Notes under the pieces: generated by a model
The model's database searches: none
Told to the model about the DNA's origin: nothing
The model's input: the letters and a program-made list of their open reading frames with translations, nothing else
Part shown: positions 9,370 to 21,525 of the stretch, in pieces
Layout of the letters: every line of letters begins with the position of its first letter
Position numbering within the stretch: the stretch's first letter is position 1
Assembly (NCBI GenBank): GCA_029038705.1
Contig: GCA_029038705.1_4346.1
Length of the DNA: 44,263 nucleotides
Strand: one strand, 5' to 3'
From: a phage
Made by a program: the position numbers and the translations under genes

Positions 9370-9524
9370 CGAACCGTAAAGCGCGACTTCTCTTTATTAA
9401 ATGTCACCAGCCTTTTCGAGTAAGCAACTCGACTTGGCTGATTATATTCAACCGTAGCGGTGACACGTGCGCCTACAAGCGCAAAACGCGTAAAGTTAAA
9501 TGGGGTGGGAGTTTAAGAGCATGA
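9366..9524 (+). CDS. Hypothetical small protein
   Basis: 52 aa ORF, ATGA-coupled on both sides. Confidence 0.35.
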   Translation: MTNRKARLLFIKCHQPFRVSNSTWLIIFNRSGDTCAYKRKTRKVKWGGSLRA

Positions 9525-10762
9525 AACTAAAAGAACGAGGCGGCAATAATGATGTACACGCCTTACTGTCACCGTCAGGCGCTAAAAAGTGGCTGTCATG
9601 CGCTGCGTCGCTGGCGTGTGAAAAAGATATCCCTAACACGTCGGGTAAAGCCGCTGTATCAGGAACCGCCATGCACACCATAGCTGAGGTCCATCTCAAC
9701 GCCTATATACGCGGCACTGCGTTGCCGTTGGAGCGTGAAGTCGGCGCTTACGTGCTGGACGAGGGTAAAGGCCAGATTAAGGCGCTAATTAGCCAGATGA
9801 AAGGCGCGGTACTGATTACGGCTGACATGATTGAGCAGGTGCGCAAGTACACCGACTACTGCAAAGCGATTATCGACGTAGCGACTTACGCCAAGCTGGA
9901 AATGCGGGTAAATCTTACTGAGGTATTGCATCCGGGTTACGAAGGCGTTGAGACGTTCGGAACCGCTGACCTTGTTGCCGTTCAGGAACTGGCGAACACT
10001 GACGAGCATATGCTCATTATCGGCGACCTGAAAACAGGACGGCATCATGTCGAAGCGAAAGAAAACAAGCAGCTTATGCTCTACGCTCTCGGTGTTTACC
10101 GCCGACTCAAGAGACGTTATAACATATCAGTAGTGCGCCTGGTCATCTTCCAGCCGTACGCCGGGGGCGCGTCGGAGTGGGACATCTCGGTTGAAGGTCT
10201 GGAACTGTTCGCTAAGTTCGCACAGAAACGCGCACTGTTAGCCCTTGATGCGTATTTCCGAGGCAAGAAGAACCTGAAAGCGTCGGACTTTAAGCCGTCT
10301 GTCGACGGTTGTCAGTGGTGTCGGTTCTCTGAACAGTGCGCAGCGCGTACAAAGACGGTTAATTCTGTACTTGCCGAAGAACTGGAGGACGACTTTGCGC
10401 TGGAACTTACGCCGGAGCAACTCGTAGCTGAATATGAGAAGTTGCCGTTGTTGCGCCAGCACATCGATAAGGTCGAAAAAGCTATGGCTGCTGCGTTGCA
10501 TTCCGGTAAGAAAGTGCCAGGGTACAAGCTGGTGGAAGGTCGCCCAGGTAATCGTGCGTGGAAAGACGCAGAGAAAGTAGCAGAACTCTACGGCGACAAG
10601 CTGACTAAAGAAGTGCTCCTGACGCCGACCGAAGCGGTTAAAGTAATACCAGAAGAAGAACTGAAAGACTTCATCACACGTAAGCCGGGGGCGCCATGCG
10701 TCACAACAGCGGACGACAAACGTCCTGAGTGGAATCAGGTTAGTGAAGAAGATTTGGAATAA
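9521..10762 (+). CDS. PD-(D/E)XK exonuclease (RecB/Cas4-like, DUF2800-type) with C-terminal cysteine cluster
   Basis: LLSPSGAKKWLSC N-terminal motif, GTADLV...IIGDLKTG...QLMLYALG nuclease core, C-terminal CQWCRFSEQC. Start is probably the ATG at 9521 (GGGAG upstream) rather than 9500. Confidence 0.7.
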   Translation: MKLKERGGNNDVHALLSPSGAKKWLSCAASLACEKDIPNTSGKAAVSGTAMHTIAEVHLNAYIRGTALPLEREVGAYVLDEGKGQIKALISQMKGAVLITADMIEQVRKYTDYCKAIIDVATYAKLEMRVNLTEVLHPGYEGVETFGTADLVAVQELANTDEHMLIIGDLKTGRHHVEAKENKQLMLYALGVYRRLKRRYNISVVRLVIFQPYAGGASEWDISVEGLELFAKFAQKRALLALDAYFRGKKNLKASDFKPSVDGCQWCRFSEQCAARTKTVNSVLAEELEDDFALELTPEQLVAEYEKLPLLRQHIDKVEKAMAAALHSGKKVPGYKLVEGRPGNRAWKDAEKVAELYGDKLTKEVLLTPTEAVKVIPEEELKDFITRKPGAPCVTTADDKRPEWNQVSEEDLE

Positions 10763-13829: not shown

Positions 13830-13915
13830 AAATCTACTGGTTCTATGAAGAAGACTGTCGAATCTGTCCGCGCTGCGGGATTGAGCACACGAAACGTGAG
13901 GGGTGCGTATTATGA
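13826..13915 (+). CDS. Hypothetical tiny Cys-rich protein
   Basis: 29 aa (MKIYWFYEEDCRICPRCGIEHTKREGCVL); ATGA-coupled. Confidence 0.25.
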   Translation: MKIYWFYEEDCRICPRCGIEHTKREGCVL

Positions 13916-14409
13916 AAGCACCAAGTGACGATATAAAAGATTTTCTGTCATACGACCCGGATACCGGGATATTTAAATGGGTCAAGCACAGATGCCAGAC
14001 CGCGAAACCCGGAGATGTTGTTACATACAAGGACCGTAAAGGGTACATATTGTTAGGATGGAGTAGGGTGTATTACCGCGCACACAGGCTGGCGTGGTGG
14101 TGGGTGTACGGAGAGATGCCAACTAAGCAAATAGACCATATTAACGGCATACGGGACGATAACCGGATTTGTAACCTACGGCTTGCGGATGAATTTCAAC
14201 AGAACCATAACCGCAAGACCCCAGTTACGAACACCAGCGGCGTGAAAGGGGTTAACTGGAGTAAGCCTCATAATGCTTGGTGTGCTCGAGTTGCTTTTAA
14301 AGGTACACGCTATCAGATTGGGTATTTCCAGAACCTAAATGAAGCAGAGGAATCCCTGAGAGAATTTAGGGTAAAACTGCACGGAGAGTTTTGCAACCAT
14401 GGCGACTAA
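13912..14409 (+). CDS. HNH homing endonuclease with AP2-like DNA-binding domain
   Basis: HRLAWWWVYGEMP...IDHINGIRDDNRICNLRL...NHN is the HNH motif; SGVKGVNWSKPHNAWCARVAFKGTRYQIGYF is AP2-like. Track start 13903 is GTG; ATG at 13912 has GAGGGG upstream. Confidence 0.8.
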   Translation: MKAPSDDIKDFLSYDPDTGIFKWVKHRCQTAKPGDVVTYKDRKGYILLGWSRVYYRAHRLAWWWVYGEMPTKQIDHINGIRDDNRICNLRLADEFQQNHNRKTPVTNTSGVKGVNWSKPHNAWCARVAFKGTRYQIGYFQNLNEAEESLREFRVKLHGEFCNHGD

Positions 14410-14686
14410 AGAGGGCCGCGTACAGAAATACGCAAAAGAGCAATTCGAGGCCATTGGCGGCCTCGTTCGTAAACTTTCGTACGAGGGGCGCTCCGGCGCC
14501 CCTGACCTGCTGGTAATTCTCCCCGGCGGCATCGTCTGGTTCGTCGAGGTGAAGAAAGACGAAAGCACGAAGCCTGACCCACACCAGTTACGAGAGCATG
14601 AGCGGATGCGTAAACGTGGTGCGAATGTTTTTGTCGTCGGGTCGTTCAAACAGGTTGACGACCTAATAGCGAACTATTATAGTTAG
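14399..14686 (+). CDS. VRR-NUC domain nuclease (PD-(D/E)XK)
   Basis: 95 aa; GAPDLLVILPGGIVWFVEVKKD matches the D-x(n)-E-x-K core. Confidence 0.7.
   Translation: MATKEGRVQKYAKEQFEAIGGLVRKLSYEGRSGAPDLLVILPGGIVWFVEVKKDESTKPDPHQLREHERMRKRGANVFVVGSFKQVDDLIANYYS
14655..14683 (+). promoter_or_regulatory. Sigma70-like promoter (TTGACG-N17-TATAGT) with AATAG-N4-CTATT palindrome, inside the 3' end of the VRR-NUC gene
   Basis: TTGACGACCTAATAGCGAACTATTATAGT. Confidence 0.55.
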
Positions 14687-14716
14687 CCCTACACCAACAA
14701 TATAAGGAATTGATAG

Positions 14717-14908
14717 ATGAAATACGAATATGACCGTAAACCAGCACGTGACATCGTACCTGGCGACATGATTTTCAACGTTAAGACCCGCCAGCCTGTT
14801 GCCGTTGATACGGTGTTCGTCGAGTCAAACGGTAAACTGGTTATCGAAGATGTAACAGGCAATGTTACAGCGTTCGGGCGTAAAGAGTTAGTTCTGGTGG
14901 CAAAATGA
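14717..14908 (+). CDS. Hypothetical protein
   Basis: 63 aa ORF with AAGGAA RBS. Confidence 0.5.
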   Translation: MKYEYDRKPARDIVPGDMIFNVKTRQPVAVDTVFVESNGKLVIEDVTGNVTAFGRKELVLVAK

Positions 14909-16329
14909 GTAAGTTTCAAAGGCGCGAATATCAGAAGCTCATGACTTCGTTCATGCTACAGCATCCGCGCTGTAATATCTGGTGCGGCATGGGAGGGGGC
15001 AAAACCTCCTCAACTATGTGGGTGCTTAATCGCCTGTTTCGCAACGGGCAGCTTACAGAAGATGACCGCGTGTTAATCCTCGCCCCGTTGCGTGTTGCAT
15101 CCGGTACGTGGCCCGCTGAACAAGAGAAATGGAACTTCCCCTGTCTGCGTGTCGTAGATGCTACCGGTTCAGAGAAGCGCCGCATCGCGGCGCTGGAGTC
15201 CGACGCTAACGTGGTGTGCACTAACTACGAAGTTATTGAGTGGCTGATTGACTACTATGGCAAAGATGACTGGCCTTTTACTGTTATCGTTGCCGATGAA
15301 AGCACGAAGCTTAAATCGTTTCGCAGCCGTTCTGGCGGCAGCAAGCGAGCAAAGGCGCTTAGTAAAGTGGCATTTGGCAAAGTTAAGCGTTTCATTAACC
15401 TGACTGGCACGCCGTCACCAAACGGCCTCAAGGACTTGTGGGGGCAGAACTGGTTTATCGACGCTGGCGAGCGACTCGGTTCATCGTACACAGCATTCAC
15501 CGACCGCTGGTTTAACTCGGTACAGAAAGGTAAATCGGCTATGGCGCGTGAATATCATGCGCGACCGGGTGCAGATAATGAGATTCATCAGAAGATGAAA
15601 GACATCAGCCTGACCATAGACCCTGCCGAGTGGTTTGGTTGTGAAGCGCCTGTTATCGTACCGGTGGAAATAGACCTGCCGAAGAAAGCGCGTCAGGCGT
15701 ACATAGATATGGAGGAGAAGTTATTCGCAGAACTGGAGAGCGGGGAAGTTGAAGCGGCTAACGCTGCGGCGAAGACCTCAAAGTGCTTGCAGATTGCATC
15801 TGGTGCTGTATATGTATCCGGGCCAGACGGCGAAGCAACCAAAGAATGGGAGAAAGTGCACGACACGAAACTGGATGCGCTGGCGTCCATTGTCGAGGAG
15901 TTACAGGGTGCGCCGTTACTGGTAGCCTATCAGTTCAAGCACGAACTGGAGCGCGTCCTTAAGCGATTCCCACAAGCACAGGCCTTTGCCAAAGGCGCCA
16001 GGGGTAATAAGCAGATGGAAGCATGGAACCGCGGGGAAATAGAGATTTTGTGCGTCCACCCTGCGTCCGCCGGGCATGGTTTGAATTTACAGGACGGGGG
16101 TCATCATCTGGCGTTCATCTCGCAAGGCTGGAACCTTGAGCACTATTTGCAGGTTGTTGAGCGCATAGGCCCAGTCCGCCAGAAACAGGCGGGTCACGAG
16201 CGCCCGGTGTTCCTTTATCACATCGTTGCTAAAGACACTCTGGACGAGGTTGTCGCCGCGCGTACCGACGAGAAGAAATCGGTACAGGAAGAGTTGCTTA
16301 ATTACATGAAGAGACGAGGTAAGAAATGA
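14905..16329 (+). CDS. SNF2-family DNA helicase/translocase
   Basis: 474 aa; Walker A-like GMGGGKT, DEXH-like VIVADESTKLK, C-terminal helicase domain. Confidence 0.8.
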   Translation: MSKFQRREYQKLMTSFMLQHPRCNIWCGMGGGKTSSTMWVLNRLFRNGQLTEDDRVLILAPLRVASGTWPAEQEKWNFPCLRVVDATGSEKRRIAALESDANVVCTNYEVIEWLIDYYGKDDWPFTVIVADESTKLKSFRSRSGGSKRAKALSKVAFGKVKRFINLTGTPSPNGLKDLWGQNWFIDAGERLGSSYTAFTDRWFNSVQKGKSAMAREYHARPGADNEIHQKMKDISLTIDPAEWFGCEAPVIVPVEIDLPKKARQAYIDMEEKLFAELESGEVEAANAAAKTSKCLQIASGAVYVSGPDGEATKEWEKVHDTKLDALASIVEELQGAPLLVAYQFKHELERVLKRFPQAQAFAKGARGNKQMEAWNRGEIEILCVHPASAGHGLNLQDGGHHLAFISQGWNLEHYLQVVERIGPVRQKQAGHERPVFLYHIVAKDTLDEVVAARTDEKKSVQEELLNYMKRRGKK

Positions 16330-16841
16330 TGGATTTCGAAGAGTTTCTACTTAAAGCTCATCTGCTGGCGCGTGGGTTTGACGCTGACCGTCTCCAGGTA
16401 GTCTTAGCCCCTGGAGTAGCTACGTTTTACCTGTGGGGGTTTGACGGTAGGCTTCGCGGATACCAGCATTACAAACCACATGCCGAAAAGAACTGTAAAA
16501 ACCCTAAAGACGCGCGGTACTTTACCAGAACAACAAGGCCGTGTTTATGGGGGCTTGAGTATTTGCCGGAAAGCGGGGTGGTATTTGTTACCGAAAGCAT
16601 ATTCAAAGCCGTAGCCTTGATGAATTGCGGGTTCAATGCTGTAAGCGCACTGGGGTCAAATATATCAACAGACCTACGGCAGCAAATGTCACTTTTGCCG
16701 TATGACTGGGTGTGCGCTGGCGACAATGATAAAGCTGGATTAAAGTTCAGCAAAACATTCACCAGAGGATTTGTATCTAACGACCTTGATGAACTTTGTG
16801 AAGAAGAAATAACGTATCTTGCGAGGAAATTTACCAGATGA
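16326..16841 (+). CDS. Toprim-domain protein (DnaG-type primase catalytic core-like)
   Basis: 171 aa; VVFVTESIFKAV...VCAGDNDKAG matches the Toprim E...DxD pattern. Confidence 0.6.
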   Translation: MMDFEEFLLKAHLLARGFDADRLQVVLAPGVATFYLWGFDGRLRGYQHYKPHAEKNCKNPKDARYFTRTTRPCLWGLEYLPESGVVFVTESIFKAVALMNCGFNAVSALGSNISTDLRQQMSLLPYDWVCAGDNDKAGLKFSKTFTRGFVSNDLDELCEEEITYLARKFTR

Positions 16842-16975
16842 ACATCATAGCCCCGATTCCAGCATTGCAAAAACGTATCAAGGAACTCGAAGAAGAGGTT
16901 CTACGACTACGGCAACAAAGAGACGCCGCTAATGCGCAACTGGCGTTTGTACTGGAGAAGTTATCAGAAGAGTAG
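16838..16975 (+). CDS. Hypothetical small coiled-coil protein
   Basis: 45 aa; ATGA-coupled to the Toprim gene. Confidence 0.3.
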   Translation: MNIIAPIPALQKRIKELEEEVLRLRQQRDAANAQLAFVLEKLSEE

Positions 16976-17008
16976 AGAAAAGGCCCCGTTTGGGGCCTTA
17001 GTTTTTAG
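16976..17008. terminator. Bidirectional terminator between the replication and tail modules
   Basis: AAGGCCCC-GTTT-GGGGCCTT, flanked by T-rich sequence on both strands. Confidence 0.6.
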
Positions 17009-18957
17009 AGTATGCGTATTTCCCCGCCGTGTATGGCGACAGGAGTAGCCAAATAAGGACTTTTTACCACAACGAAGCCATTTTCGTTGCTCACCACCGG
17101 CGGCTTCGATACATCGGATGTAGAAAGCGCCACCGCGGTCCTACCGGCTACATGCCCGAGCCAAAACCATGTCCCCAAGTTATGGTCTATTTTAAGGGCG
17201 AGGAACAGTAATTGGGTATCTGAGTATTGAATCTGTGTTGTCCATTTTGCTCGGGTGTCTGAGCCAGAAATCTCTGTAGAGACGCTCGCGCCAACTGTGT
17301 ACCCTGCGGAGCTACCATTGCTCATCTTCCCGTTAACAAGCTGCGGGTGGTATTTACTGGTCTGCTTGGCTTTCCCTACAACTGAACTAAGTCCTAAATC
17401 CGGGTGGTAGAAGACTATAGTCTGGTCTACTGTGCTGGCCTCTTTAGCGGATGCAGCGGGTAGTGTTGTACCGCCGGGTTTTATATCTGTTTGCCAGTGA
17501 ATGTCAGAAAGGTTGTACGGCGACCCTTCGTTAAGGTTCCACCAAACGGCCCCTCCCCCAATACGGTTATTAGGAAGAATACGCACGTTAGTATTATCGT
17601 CAAATGCGCCAAACATTTTCATACTACTGCCGTAAATCCAACAGTTATCCATAGTGATATTATTGGCGCTCGTTGCTATGACGCCATATACACCACTTTC
17701 GTCTGACTCTATGTAGCATGAATCAAACTTGATGTTATATGCTCCTGCAATCCAAACGCCATGGGTACGAAAACTTTCAATGCCGCAGTTGAACAGCGTA
17801 AGAGCTTCAACAGCCCCTTCGAACTTAATGCCGACATCACACTTGCCTGTATGAACTGATACTAATGGCTGAATGTTACATTCATCGGTAAAGTGGTAAC
17901 GGTGCAAGCCGTTAGTGTATGTACCGTTACACTGTAGGTTCCTGAACATGGAGTAAAAACAGCGCTGAGTGTAAATCAACTGCTGGACGTTTACACCAAC
18001 AATATCTGTAACTTCGCAGCCAAATACATGGTCCCGCAGACGAAAGCCTTGATAGAAATTAATCAGTGTAGCATTGCGAATTGTTGTCCCTATAGTTAGA
18101 TACTCTTCACCAGATTTTCCAAAAACCGAAGAGATAGTGCCAGTAGAAGTTATATAGCCAGTCTCAATGAACACGTTAGTTGTGTCAGAAGTGTCGTCAC
18201 GCCCTACGATACGAGCGCCCTGAAAATCGATCACTTGCATCCTACGCTTAGGGAAATTAGTTGCTTCAATGCCAGATGGAGATTCTGAAGCCAACACATA
18301 AACTTTACCGGCGATGTAGTAGCTTTTCCACGGAGTAGCAACAACTTTAACACCACCCGCGCGCCACGCGGCGACTATAGCCGCCTGAAACGCCGATGTG
18401 TCGTCATGGCGACTAGGGTTTGGGCTTCCGTTTACCAGGTAGGCGTCACCGTATGCGCCAAAATCATCAACGTTAATCTCCTGTTTGAGTTTATCCATTA
18501 CGGTGAGTGAAACCGAATCGGAATACCCAGAATTGAATCCCACCAAAGATGCGCCGGATAGATCTGCTAGCTCATTGCGCAAATCCGGGTCAGTCTGCGG
18601 CTTCCAGTTAGCGTTACCAACCGGGTTAAACGATGCGGGGACAACAACCGGCAGAGTCCCGGTATACGAGTACCACGTCTTGCTTACAGGGGCATACACC
18701 ACTTTGTCTCGGTCATTAACTGTTAATGTCCCGCCTGTAGAAAAGTCCCACGACACGGGAGAAAATCCCGCGCCACGCAACACGGCGGGTAACGTCTTCT
18801 GTGTCTGTCCGGTAACCTGATTTGTTGCATAATCAATATCAGCACCAGTAGCAACACCGCCGGATTTGCCGGTGATAACCTCGGCTTCAAAAATTTGGTG
18901 TTTCTTGGCGGTCTGTAAATCCACCAGGCTTAAAACGTCACCGCATCCGCTTGACAT
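17005..18957 (-). CDS. Tailspike / tail fibre with right-handed beta-helix (pectate-lyase-like) domain; candidate depolymerase
   Basis: 650 aa, last gene of the tail operon; DDTSAFQAAIVAAW resembles the pectate-lyase-family motif; repetitive Gly/Asn/Thr-rich beta-strand segments. Confidence 0.7.
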   Translation of the reverse strand: MSSGCGDVLSLVDLQTAKKHQIFEAEVITGKSGGVATGADIDYATNQVTGQTQKTLPAVLRGAGFSPVSWDFSTGGTLTVNDRDKVVYAPVSKTWYSYTGTLPVVVPASFNPVGNANWKPQTDPDLRNELADLSGASLVGFNSGYSDSVSLTVMDKLKQEINVDDFGAYGDAYLVNGSPNPSRHDDTSAFQAAIVAAWRAGGVKVVATPWKSYYIAGKVYVLASESPSGIEATNFPKRRMQVIDFQGARIVGRDDTSDTTNVFIETGYITSTGTISSVFGKSGEEYLTIGTTIRNATLINFYQGFRLRDHVFGCEVTDIVGVNVQQLIYTQRCFYSMFRNLQCNGTYTNGLHRYHFTDECNIQPLVSVHTGKCDVGIKFEGAVEALTLFNCGIESFRTHGVWIAGAYNIKFDSCYIESDESGVYGVIATSANNITMDNCWIYGSSMKMFGAFDDNTNVRILPNNRIGGGAVWWNLNEGSPYNLSDIHWQTDIKPGGTTLPAASAKEASTVDQTIVFYHPDLGLSSVVGKAKQTSKYHPQLVNGKMSNGSSAGYTVGASVSTEISGSDTRAKWTTQIQYSDTQLLFLALKIDHNLGTWFWLGHVAGRTAVALSTSDVSKPPVVSNENGFVVVKSPYLATPVAIHGGEIRIL

Positions 18958-18969
18958 ATAGAGTCCTCT

Positions 18970-21525
18970 TTAATTAAAACCATTGCTGAATCCGTCGGAG
19001 AAACCGCTGCCGTATGGCGCGACGCCGTCGTATTTATAGAATCCGTCGTCATAGTTGTAGCCTGTAATCTTGACCGTGCGGTCGTCGCCGGGGTCGATTG
19101 AAGAAACAACTATCTTCTGAGCATTATGCCTTGCTTCGTTGCCGAATGAAAACTCAGTTTTTAGTGCGCTATTCCCCGTGTAGATTGCTTCTTCCGGCGC
19201 GGAGAGCATAATCACTTCGCGGTCGTGGCTTCCTTTGATAACGGAGATACTCTGTACAGAGCCATCGCGCTTCTTGAGGATGATGGAGTGGTCATCACCC
19301 GGAGTAAACGCAACCGGCTGTGACAGTGTCAGCGTAAGCCCATTAACGGCAGCAACATAGCCGTCCTGTGGCGCAATACGCGAGCCTTTAACTACGCTGA
19401 TTACACCGCCTGGGGTAGCGAGCGCACCTTCTTCGGTAGCTTCAAACTCTACGACAACTTTACTTAACGCATTGCGCTGGTAGCGACGCCACGCCAGCCA
19501 GTACGCTTGCTGATAGTTGCGCACGCCCTTCGATTCGTATTCCTCGGTGTTTGCCCCTAGTTCTTCCGGGATATAAATAGTTTCCTGTACGTTCGTATCC
19601 GGGTCGATGTATGAGAACGACAGGCTATCGTAGGTTGTCGAATCGTTGAACGTGCGGGTCCATTTCTCAGTACCGGTAGTTTTGCTGCGGTGGGTGAACA
19701 CCATTTCAGGCCCCGCGACAGGACGGTCGAATCGCAGCATAATATCCGCACCTTTACGGTACGCAGTACAGAAAACGGCTTCCGCTATGGTCTGGACGAT
19801 GTCCTGCATGGTTGTGTCATAGTCGTCGAACGTGTAGCAGAATTGCCCTGCTAATTCACTTCCGAAATAGGACTCAATTTCTTCCTGCACAGCAAGTAAC
19901 TTGTCCATGTTTGCCGTTGTCAGTTCCAGATTGCCTACTGCGGGGTCGCGCGCCAGTCGAATTAGAGATTGTACGGCTTGCGTGTTCGGTGTCATTACTG
20001 TATCGAATACCCCATTGCCGAGGTATTTGTAGCACATCTCGGTCGCAATCATGCGCAGTTCAGGGTTATCGATACTGGCGGCCCGCGGCGTCTGTTTACG
20101 GGCGCAATGTACGGTAGTTCGGTTGCCGTAGTGTGGAGTGGTGTCCAGAGACTGCCCATACAGGTTAATGAATGTTATCTCGTCGCTTACCGTTCCGGCA
20201 TAGTCCTTATCAAAATTCGTTATACGGCGCATACGGGCGCGGAAACGAGACGCGGTCGGCAACTGCCCGTAGATAGACGTACCAACGTAATCCGTGCTAT
20301 TACCAGTAATCGTAGCCTGTACCGTGTAAATATCGCTCAACGGGTTACGCTGAGAGTCAATCATCTGGTACTGGAGTTCCACCGTTACGCTGGTGCGGTT
20401 ATAGCCGCCGTCGTATTTGTAGATGCCGTTCTGCCCGGCAACGTTCGCAAGCACCCGGTCAACTTCTCCGCGCACCATGTAATACCAGTCTGTCAGGGAT
20501 ACGTCATAGGTGTCGCTCGGGCCGATAAACGTATCTGAACGCTCTGTTAGGGCGTACGTCTGCCCGCTGGTCAACGCCGCCCAGTTAGACGCACCGTTTA
20601 CCGCTAATCTTACTTCGAAGTCATCAACGTATAAAACCTCAAACGAGCCGTTCAGGTTAGTGACATCAGCAACGTCAAAGTTGCTCAGCACCGCGACATC
20701 ACCGGCGCTAAGAAACTCAGAAAAAGCAGAGTCGCCCGACGGGTCATAGATGTAGCCGGTGGTCGAAGTACGTTTGGCGGTTCCACCGGAGCTTGGGTTA
20801 GCCCCAATGTCGTTTGGCGCTTTGAGCACAATACCGTCAACGTCGTCATTGGAGTACGTCACATAGAGCTTCTGATCAATGACGTCGCCGATTTGTACCT
20901 GCGGCGATGTGGTGTTGTTCGGTGACGTATACGGCGCGTACACGGCAACAGAGGAACCTGTGATGTCGCTTATCAGGGTGTCGCCTTCCGTGACGCCATC
21001 GGCCTCAATATACAGATGTCCGCGCCCGGCGTCGTAGTACGAATACTCCAGCAAAGCACCAGTGGAGTTGAACGCTTTATACGTCTGCATAAGGTCGTTA
21101 GGGATTGTCTGCACAGTCCCGCAGATGTCATAAGAGCGCTCGTAAGGGCGTGGTTTGTTTGAGCGGTCCGTGAGGCTGTTATTTGGCGATGTTGTCTGGT
21201 TGTTAGTCGCCGTATAGTTGGCGTTTGCGGACATGTTCAGGCCAAACAACTTAGCGATTGGCTTAAGGATAAAACCAAATACCTTACTAACTGCACCAAG
21301 CGCCCCGCTACCCGCACCCTCAATAATATGGTACACGGCGTCTTCGTCTTTAAGCGCTTCGAAGTCGTCTGTAACATCAGTATCATCGCCAATCTCGCCG
21401 AGGTAGACGCGCACAGGCACACCGTCCGGAATACGGCTAACAACAAACTCCATCGGCATCCCGACGTGTTTTGTACGGTCGAAAGCGCCATCAGCGTTTC
21501 GCGAGTAGTGCAGGATTATCGCCAA
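18970..21525 (-). CDS. Tail tip / central tail fibre protein (host-specificity J-like)
   Basis: 851 aa; position distal to tape measure and minor tail genes. Function assigned by size and position. Confidence 0.6.
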   Translation of the reverse strand: MAIILHYSRNADGAFDRTKHVGMPMEFVVSRIPDGVPVRVYLGEIGDDTDVTDDFEALKDEDAVYHIIEGAGSGALGAVSKVFGFILKPIAKLFGLNMSANANYTATNNQTTSPNNSLTDRSNKPRPYERSYDICGTVQTIPNDLMQTYKAFNSTGALLEYSYYDAGRGHLYIEADGVTEGDTLISDITGSSVAVYAPYTSPNNTTSPQVQIGDVIDQKLYVTYSNDDVDGIVLKAPNDIGANPSSGGTAKRTSTTGYIYDPSGDSAFSEFLSAGDVAVLSNFDVADVTNLNGSFEVLYVDDFEVRLAVNGASNWAALTSGQTYALTERSDTFIGPSDTYDVSLTDWYYMVRGEVDRVLANVAGQNGIYKYDGGYNRTSVTVELQYQMIDSQRNPLSDIYTVQATITGNSTDYVGTSIYGQLPTASRFRARMRRITNFDKDYAGTVSDEITFINLYGQSLDTTPHYGNRTTVHCARKQTPRAASIDNPELRMIATEMCYKYLGNGVFDTVMTPNTQAVQSLIRLARDPAVGNLELTTANMDKLLAVQEEIESYFGSELAGQFCYTFDDYDTTMQDIVQTIAEAVFCTAYRKGADIMLRFDRPVAGPEMVFTHRSKTTGTEKWTRTFNDSTTYDSLSFSYIDPDTNVQETIYIPEELGANTEEYESKGVRNYQQAYWLAWRRYQRNALSKVVVEFEATEEGALATPGGVISVVKGSRIAPQDGYVAAVNGLTLTLSQPVAFTPGDDHSIILKKRDGSVQSISVIKGSHDREVIMLSAPEEAIYTGNSALKTEFSFGNEARHNAQKIVVSSIDPGDDRTVKITGYNYDDGFYKYDGVAPYGSGFSDGFSNGFN

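Follow-up and report, generated by a model that had tools for sequence, protein, structure and literature searches.

In the stretch of phage DNA analysed here (hereafter the window; 44,263 nucleotides (nt), contig GCA_029038705.1_4346.1 of GenBank assembly GCA_029038705.1), a gene on the minus strand (17005..18957; ATG start, TAA stop) was identified as coding for a tailspike of 650 amino acids (aa) plus stop. We consider it likely that this protein is the sole tailspike of a small Escherichia coli siphovirus, a lytic Kagunavirus, and that it is composed of an anchor, a linker and a swapped beta-helix cassette, which binds and cleaves O-antigen. The initial annotation of this DNA had described the gene as a beta-helix tailspike without further subdivision; only aa 158-650 constitute an exchangeable receptor-binding cassette, and neither this restriction nor the sharing of the cassette with P22-like prophages had been noticed. 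The modular structure of the protein, the sharing of its cassette and the recombination breakpoints were all observed directly, as described below.

As judged from nucleotide comparison, the window represents an essentially complete Kagunavirus genome. Its first 25 kb are 95.6% identical to Escherichia phage JSSK01 over 81% of the length, and 90-95% identical over approximately 70% to many other Kagunavirus (Guernseyvirinae) genomes. In NCBI, a 44,293-bp contig labelled E. coli carries the identical 650-aa protein, entered as a third-party annotation (TPA) under the name 'right-handed parallel beta-helix repeat-containing protein'. The gene is located directly 3' of the gene for a J-like tail protein and at the end of the structural operon of a Guernseyvirinae genome of the 41-45 kb class, which is the position of the Kagunavirus tailspike, and the gene order at this locus is the same in JSSK01 and fFiEco02. 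The J-like protein gene marks the tailspike locus of small siphoviruses, and the location of the tailspike after it has been described for Guernseyvirinae (PMC11990801). In JSSK01, the closest backbone relative, the tailspike slot is occupied by a 984-aa K1 endosialidase (beta-propeller).

The N-terminal 129 residues (18571..18957; this and all other parts of the gene on the minus strand) form the Kagunavirus anchor, the particle-binding domain, as indicated by genus-wide DNA matches, PHROG matches and the ends of blastn alignments. In a megablast search against 50,697 phage records, the tailspike gene matched 103 records via its first 371-391 nt only, with 86.5-97% identity among the matches listed, and almost all of these records are Kagunavirus or E. 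coli siphoviruses; the anchor is thus conserved genus-wide, as is characteristic of Kagunavirus tailspikes. The PHROG tail-spike families match almost solely aa 1-222, the best of them being phrog_29731 'tail spike protein' (aa 1-114, E 1.5e-49). Residues 6-146 align with the PDB entry 9lna_A, 'Tail fibers protein', and residues 77-112 with Pfam Tail_spike_N at 22.6 bits, under its cut-off. In the AlphaFold2 monomer model aa 1-69 are disordered, with low confidence.

The borders of the exchanged segment were located by blastn. The downstream flank of the Kagunavirus backbone is 98.8% identical to JSSK01 from 16600 to the final base of the stop codon at 17005, and the terminator hairpin is a part of this conserved backbone. 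On the other side, backbone homology resumes at 18572 (fFiEco02) or 18763 (JSSK01), the JSSK01 homology ending at nt 195 of the tailspike gene. Homology to P22-like prophage DNA spans 17017-18486, and the linker DNA in between (18487-18571, 85 nt) matches neither parental lineage. The linker or neck thus defined by the breakpoints covers aa 130-157 (18487..18570), and a modelled helix of aa 124-138 extends into it. Since the breakpoints lie at the stop codon and at the anchor end, a clean replacement of the cassette is indicated, which consists of a predicted right-handed parallel beta-helix (aa 158-480, 17518..18486), the receptor-binding and putative catalytic domain, and a C-terminal beta-sandwich (aa 481-650, 17008..17517). 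Calculated by domain, the identity to the prophage tailspikes is 22% for aa 1-129, 29% for aa 130-157, 92-94% for aa 158-480 and 84-88% for aa 481-650 (94% and 88% over the last two for the E. coli prophage spike taken alone), and with such an identity in both helix and C-terminal domain the tailspike of the window and the 638-aa spikes of the prophages almost certainly share the same glycan specificity.

In a collection of 5.8 billion proteins, the beta-helix plus C-terminal cassette is present in 16 full-length 650-aa variants (91-100% identity), all on phage-sized contigs. Next in similarity are hundreds of 638-aa proteins with PF09008, the head-binding domain of P22, which match the C-terminal 81% of the window protein with 84-88% identity. 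Their genes stand last in intact P22-like prophages, where they follow gp7/gp20/gp16, the Mnt/Arc immunity region and Ant, and the prophages are located at tRNA-Arg in E. coli EC6 and next to the hut operon in Salmonella enterica, the Salmonella carriers being named serovar Rubislaw, O:11, twice in the database names. The cassette is also carried by a T7-like podovirus, in the tail-fibre position after gp13-gp16 and behind a PF03906 N-terminus, and by a 58-kb siphovirus. This distribution indicates that the cassette is traded among unrelated phages of E. coli and Salmonella. Among the phage records searched above, the cassette has no near DNA match, and the sole protein match above 30% among phage isolates (tblastn) is a protein of 520 aa, the second spike of the podovirus vB_EcoP_P64441. 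Clustered at 50% identity, the cassette family is small, with 156 clusters among 1.84 billion representatives, 12 of them with E below 1e-30, and its solved relatives reach at most 18% identity. The exchange of receptor-binding domains (RBDs) between Kagunavirus and Lederbergvirus, tracking the O-serogroup, has been documented, and it has been published that a conserved anchor is combined with RBDs exchanged horizontally, recombination taking place at the anchor end (PMC10408124).

Complete E. coli genomes hold the cassette in three of 5,426 cases, and two of the three copies are truncated. In E. coli 2017.06.05CC (NZ_AP027790.1 3810220-3827323), a truncated 276-aa copy lies in a degraded P22-like prophage, from which the injection proteins are deleted, with an adjoining IS1 and a Hachiman defence system (HamA plus helicase) just beyond.

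The assignment of the cassette to the beta-helix enzymes had been based in the initial annotation on the motif DDTSAFQAAIVAAW and on repetitive beta-strand-like segments. The motif was found at aa 185-198 (18364..18405), within the open reading frame (ORF) whose bounds, 17005..18957, were confirmed exactly, and it is the N-terminal cap hallmark of the beta-helix fold, beyond chance: when 62 relatives were combined into a profile, it was specifically this stretch that linked them to solved beta-helix enzymes. Almost all similarity of the profile to solved structures lies in the cap, with the consensus NVKDFGAxGDGxTDDTxAIQAAI and E values of 3e-17 to 4e-06, and the matched structures include GH55 glucanases, Geobacillus E2 ORF18, PfbA, Sf6 tailspike, AlgE4/6, polygalacturonases, iota-carrageenase, phiAB6, Phi92 gp150 and phi29 gp12. 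In the window protein the cap is split, FGAYGD (aa 166-171) and DDTSAFQAAI (aa 185-194) being separated by a segment with NGSPNPSRH, which amounts to an insertion of 11-12 aa against the family consensus; as in other beta-helix tailspikes, the motif FGAxGDG...DDTxAxQxAI stands before the first rungs. Within the motif region, D185, D186, Q191, A193 and R199 are invariant in 10 closer relatives. Pfam PF12708 was not reported for the window protein at E <= 1.

The AlphaFold2 model, constructed with 62 relatives, has a mean pLDDT (predicted local distance difference test) of 81, and most ten-residue blocks of aa 160-480 exceed 90, with one dip to 68. It contains a cap helix at aa 187-199, at the motif, followed by a stack of short strands at aa 242-470 with pLDDT mostly above 90. 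The right-handed parallel beta-helix core expected of beta-helix tailspike depolymerases is therefore present in the predicted structure. The repetitive strand-like segments were borne out by this modelled stack but not at the sequence level, where Pfam Beta_helix scored 26.8 bits against a cut-off of 25.9, and hydrophobicity autocorrelation over aa 241-470, tried as evidence for the rungs, peaked at lag 23 with z = 2.06 over 20 lags, which is not significant alone. After Foldseek search against PDB, the HK620 tailspike ranked top (E 1.2e-7), followed by the tailspikes phiAB6, CBA120 TSP1, AS12 gp42 and CBA120 TSP2, and the best matches among predicted viral structures were also tailspikes. 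The C-terminal domain is modelled as all-beta (block pLDDT 51-91), with weak Foldseek matches to Ig-like domains over approximately 85-117 aligned columns, and it ends with a conserved GGEIR, of which G644-R648 are invariant in close relatives. By analogy with solved tailspikes, the protein should be a homotrimer.

In the alignment of the 62 sequences, extending down to approximately 20% identity, the only invariant columns are E394, Y415 and E417. The two glutamates are 23 residues, or one coil, apart on repeated C-x-I-E-S rungs, CGIES (aa 391-395) and CYIES (aa 414-418; together 17707..17787), with Y415 beside, and both rungs are modelled as strands (residues 392-394 and 415-418) stacked as neighbours. 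With Ile and Cys facing the core, Glu, Tyr and Glu should be stacked on the outer face in the model, and E394, Y415 and E417 are the candidate catalytic residues. This arrangement suggests an endoglycosidase, and we give the hydrolase reading a somewhat better than even chance. The tailspikes of P22, Sf6 and HK620 use Asp/Glu pairs. Transfer of the chemistry from solved structures by sequence was tried and failed, since phmmer gave only the N-terminal match to 9lna and the profile matched via the cap only; a characterised close homologue of the tailspike was not found in the PDB, phage-record and profile searches.

The comparison with named systems places the protein among the Kagunavirus tailspikes. 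Those of fFiEco02, XY1, K1G/K1H and BASEL Bas70-76 share with it the backbone, the locus and the anchor (86.5-97% nt identity over approximately 386 nt in the records listed), and follow the same logic of a conserved anchor and an exchangeable RBD (PMC10408124), but differ in that the cassette of the window is without a near DNA match in phage records. The K1 endosialidases of the Kagunaviruses K1G, K1H and JSSK01 are distinguished by End_beta_propel PF12217, which is absent from the window protein in Pfam, the fold here being a predicted beta-helix. The P22-like (Lederbergvirus) prophage tailspikes of E. coli and Salmonella enterica, 638 aa in length, share the helix and the C-terminal domain but differ in the PF09008 N-terminus, for which the window protein gave no Pfam match, and belong to temperate podoviruses, in contrast to a lytic siphovirus; with the P22 tailspike family the window protein has only the cassette in common, and taken whole it falls outside that family. 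To the solved tailspikes of HK620 (PDB 2vji, 4xn3; endo-N-acetylglucosaminidase, E. coli O18A1), P22 and Sf6 the identity is 11-14%, with a Foldseek TM-score of approximately 0.33. The acids of these three tailspikes are spaced by 33 residues, as compared with 23 for the candidate acids here, and no residue-level correspondence with their catalytic residues was established. The 'putative pectin lyase' PDB 7chu, which is ORF18 of Geobacillus virus E2 and thus stems from a phage with a Gram-positive thermophilic host, is 12% identical, and the literature on it gave nothing usable on substrate or catalytic residues.

The second spike of vB_EcoP_P64441 (Slopekvirinae), annotated as 'tail fiber protein' (520 aa), is 70% identical in aa sequence over 96% of the RBD. 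It differs from the window protein by its short N-terminus without the Kagunavirus anchor and is encoded apart from the K1 endosialidase spike; at 70% identity its specificity may or may not be the same as here. In the genome of this phage (PQ847473.1) the K1 endosialidase is at the tail-fibre position and the 520-aa cassette relative is encoded after the lysis genes, an organization that suggests a dual-receptor host range and recalls the two-capsule phage K1-5.

Taking the domain map and the model together, we infer the following mode of action. The anchor of aa 1-129 would attach the spike at the tail tip, next to the J-like protein, and the helix surface of a trimer would bind and cleave a polysaccharide of the host surface, most probably one particular O-antigen, with Glu394 and Glu417 as the best candidates for the active site and Tyr415 adjacent. 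As the glycan is cleaved, the virion would move down to the outer membrane, where the DNA would be injected. The cassette itself was gained by recombination, with one end in the region of codons 130-158 and the other at the stop codon.

The solved P22-type tailspikes (P22, Sf6 and HK620) are O-antigen endoglycosidases. The view that a surface polysaccharide serves as the primary receptor, proposed in the initial annotation, gains support from the identification of the phage as a Kagunavirus, since the tested isolates of this genus depend on a surface glycan via the spike whose gene follows that of the J-like protein (PMC11990801, PMC10408124). The BASEL Kagunavirus isolates are all O-antigen-dependent, Kagunaviruses isolated on O16-restored K-12 depend fully on O-antigen, and for Guernseyvirinae in general a glycan dependence via this spike has been described (PMC11990801). 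O-antigen is the most likely target glycan, favoured over capsule because the main home of the cassette is in P22-like prophages, its Salmonella carriers bear Rubislaw names, Kagunaviruses are glycan-dependent, and RBD exchange between Kagunavirus and Lederbergvirus that follows the O-serogroup has been published. As to the serogroup, tblastn against all phage records gave no RBD relative above 30% identity apart from P64441, which carries no serogroup label; by sequence, the RBD is not among the subtypes with an assigned serogroup in the scheme of Pas et al. 2023. A link from Salmonella O:11 to an E. coli O-group was sought in the literature, and no partner was found.

Among the alternatives to the O-antigen-cleaving tailspike, one retains the architecture but replaces the target by capsule (K-antigen), colanic acid or other exopolysaccharide, as in the Kagunaviruses with K1 endosialidase. 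The prototypes K1G and K1H target the K1 capsule (PMC10408124; PMC11990801), and so does JSSK01. Colanic acid is raised by a weak match (aa 123-440, E 2.1e-5) to phrog_8280, 'tail spike protein with colanic acid degradation activity', and a shared glycan by the presence of the cassette in both E. coli and Salmonella, which have colanic acid and enterobacterial common antigen (ECA). As the principal interpretation, the colanic-acid reading through phrog_8280 was rejected, the similarity to spikes that degrade colanic acid, Phi92 gp150 among them, being generic, and with the lines of evidence for O-antigen listed above we regard a target of this kind as quite improbable. Another alternative concerns the chemistry: the beta-helix may bind the glycan without hydrolysing it, being a purely adhesive spike, or act otherwise, such as a beta-elimination lyase on a uronic-acid polymer. 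The two invariant glutamates one coil apart represent the commonest signature of tailspike endoglycosidases, the best Foldseek match is the HK620 endo-N-acetylglucosaminidase, and the strict invariance of three surface residues at approximately 20% identity argues for catalysis over mere binding, so that we consider a non-hydrolase unlikely. That the ORF might not code for a functional virion protein at all, being a chance or decaying ORF or a captured bacterial beta-helix adhesin, is hardly conceivable: nothing specific favours it, although cassette copies cut off in degraded prophages do occur, and it is contradicted by the intact reading frame with ribosome-binding site and terminator, by the sixteen full-length variants of 650 aa on phage-sized contigs with 91-100% identity, and by the canonical Kagunavirus tailspike position and anchor.

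Several observations weigh against the O-antigen-cleaving tailspike. The solvent exposure and the spacing of E394 and E417 are deduced in the model from the strand register alone, and cleavage of the glycan by the cassette, as opposed to mere binding, is argued by analogy. The first spike of vB_EcoP_P64441, in which the 70%-identical cassette serves as second spike, is a K1 endosialidase, a point in favour of capsule. An attempt to read the serogroup from complete E. coli genomes gave no association, with only one intact lysogen, EC6; this strain carries an O60-type wzm/wzt cluster with IS1 in a glycosyltransferase gene, the galF-gnd cluster of O60 is reported not to account for the published O60 structure (PMC7685785), and two other genomes with the EC6-type O-cluster have no tailspike of this type. 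In EC6 (NZ_CP182398.1, 1800000-1849999), IS5 is inserted in the colanic-acid gene cpsB, and the surface glycans of this strain may be altered by insertion sequences.

The genetic surroundings agree with the description of the tailspike gene as the terminal tail gene, since the ORF directly follows the J-like protein gene and is followed by a terminator hairpin and then by convergent genes. The J-like central tail protein gene (18970..21525, minus strand) matches phrog_469 'tail protein' (E 1.8e-254), with weak Pfam matches to Phage-tail_3 and FNIII-A_GpJ. The tailspike gene begins 12 nt after this 851-aa gene and is preceded by a ribosome-binding site, AGAGGA (18964..18969, minus strand), 6 nt 5' of the ATG. 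The length of 851 aa corresponds to the mechanically listed TTG start, compared with 824-827 aa annotated for relatives, and translation probably begins instead at a Met inside the listed frame (MPMEFVV...), some 22-24 codons past the TTG. The tail operon is closed by an intrinsic terminator at 16980..16999, bidirectional, identified from the sequence and a terminator scan, with the hairpin AAGGCCCC-loop-GGGGCCTT (8-bp stem, of which 6 pairs are GC, and a T-rich run on either strand), 5 nt past the tailspike stop codon. Past the terminator, the convergent plus-strand replication genes comprise a 45-aa ORF and those for a Toprim protein and an SNF2 helicase. The 45-aa coiled-coil ORF (MNIIAPIPALQKRIKELEEEVLRLRQQRDAANAQLAFVLEKLSEE; 16838-16975, plus strand) overlaps with its start the stop of the Toprim gene (ATGA) and stops just before the bidirectional terminator, which is common to this ORF and the tailspike gene; it is kept in Kagunaviruses (JSSK01_41, FE2_034), and its Pfam matches (DUF1192, DUF4140, ZapB-like) are all sub-threshold.

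Two further differences from JSSK01 were recognized in the backbone. An HNH_3 homing-endonuclease-like gene (13903-14409, plus strand; 168 aa, Pfam 46.6 bits) lies between the DNA polymerase and VRR-NUC genes, at a site where JSSK01 has just two tiny ORFs. In the P22-like prophages of Salmonella, the homologous tailspike gene is immediately preceded by an HNH_3/AP2 gene in opposite orientation (9478-9978 of that locus), whose product is 35% identical to that of the window gene; a link of these endonucleases to the cassette swap was considered and rejected, as both belong to a common homing-endonuclease family and no evidence indicates that they mediated the swap. JSSK01 (14655-16943) has a DNA cytosine methyltransferase between a 63-aa ORF and the SNF2 helicase, which is absent from the window (14717-16329), where the 63-aa ORF adjoins the helicase directly.

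The principle of an anchor with an exchangeable RBD and the exchange between Kagunavirus and Lederbergvirus are already published, so that the tailspike raises no new biological question, and its practical value is modest, lying in host-range engineering and, once the glycan is known, in serogroup-specific diagnostics; it may also lead to a reagent for typing or treating Salmonella O:11 (Rubislaw) and the corresponding type of E. coli. The cassette represents a natural, ready-made receptor-binding module on siphovirus, T7-like, Slopekvirinae and P22-like chassis. As a more specific proposal, which we put forward only tentatively and hold to be doubtful, the cassette may constitute an uncharacterised family of polysaccharide-cleaving proteins with an active site on two C-x-I-E-S rungs (Glu394, Tyr415 and Glu417), acting on the O-antigen of Salmonella O:11 (Rubislaw) and of a minority of E. 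coli. If this is true, it would be a cross-genus, serogroup-specific recognition module used on at least five unrelated phage backbones.

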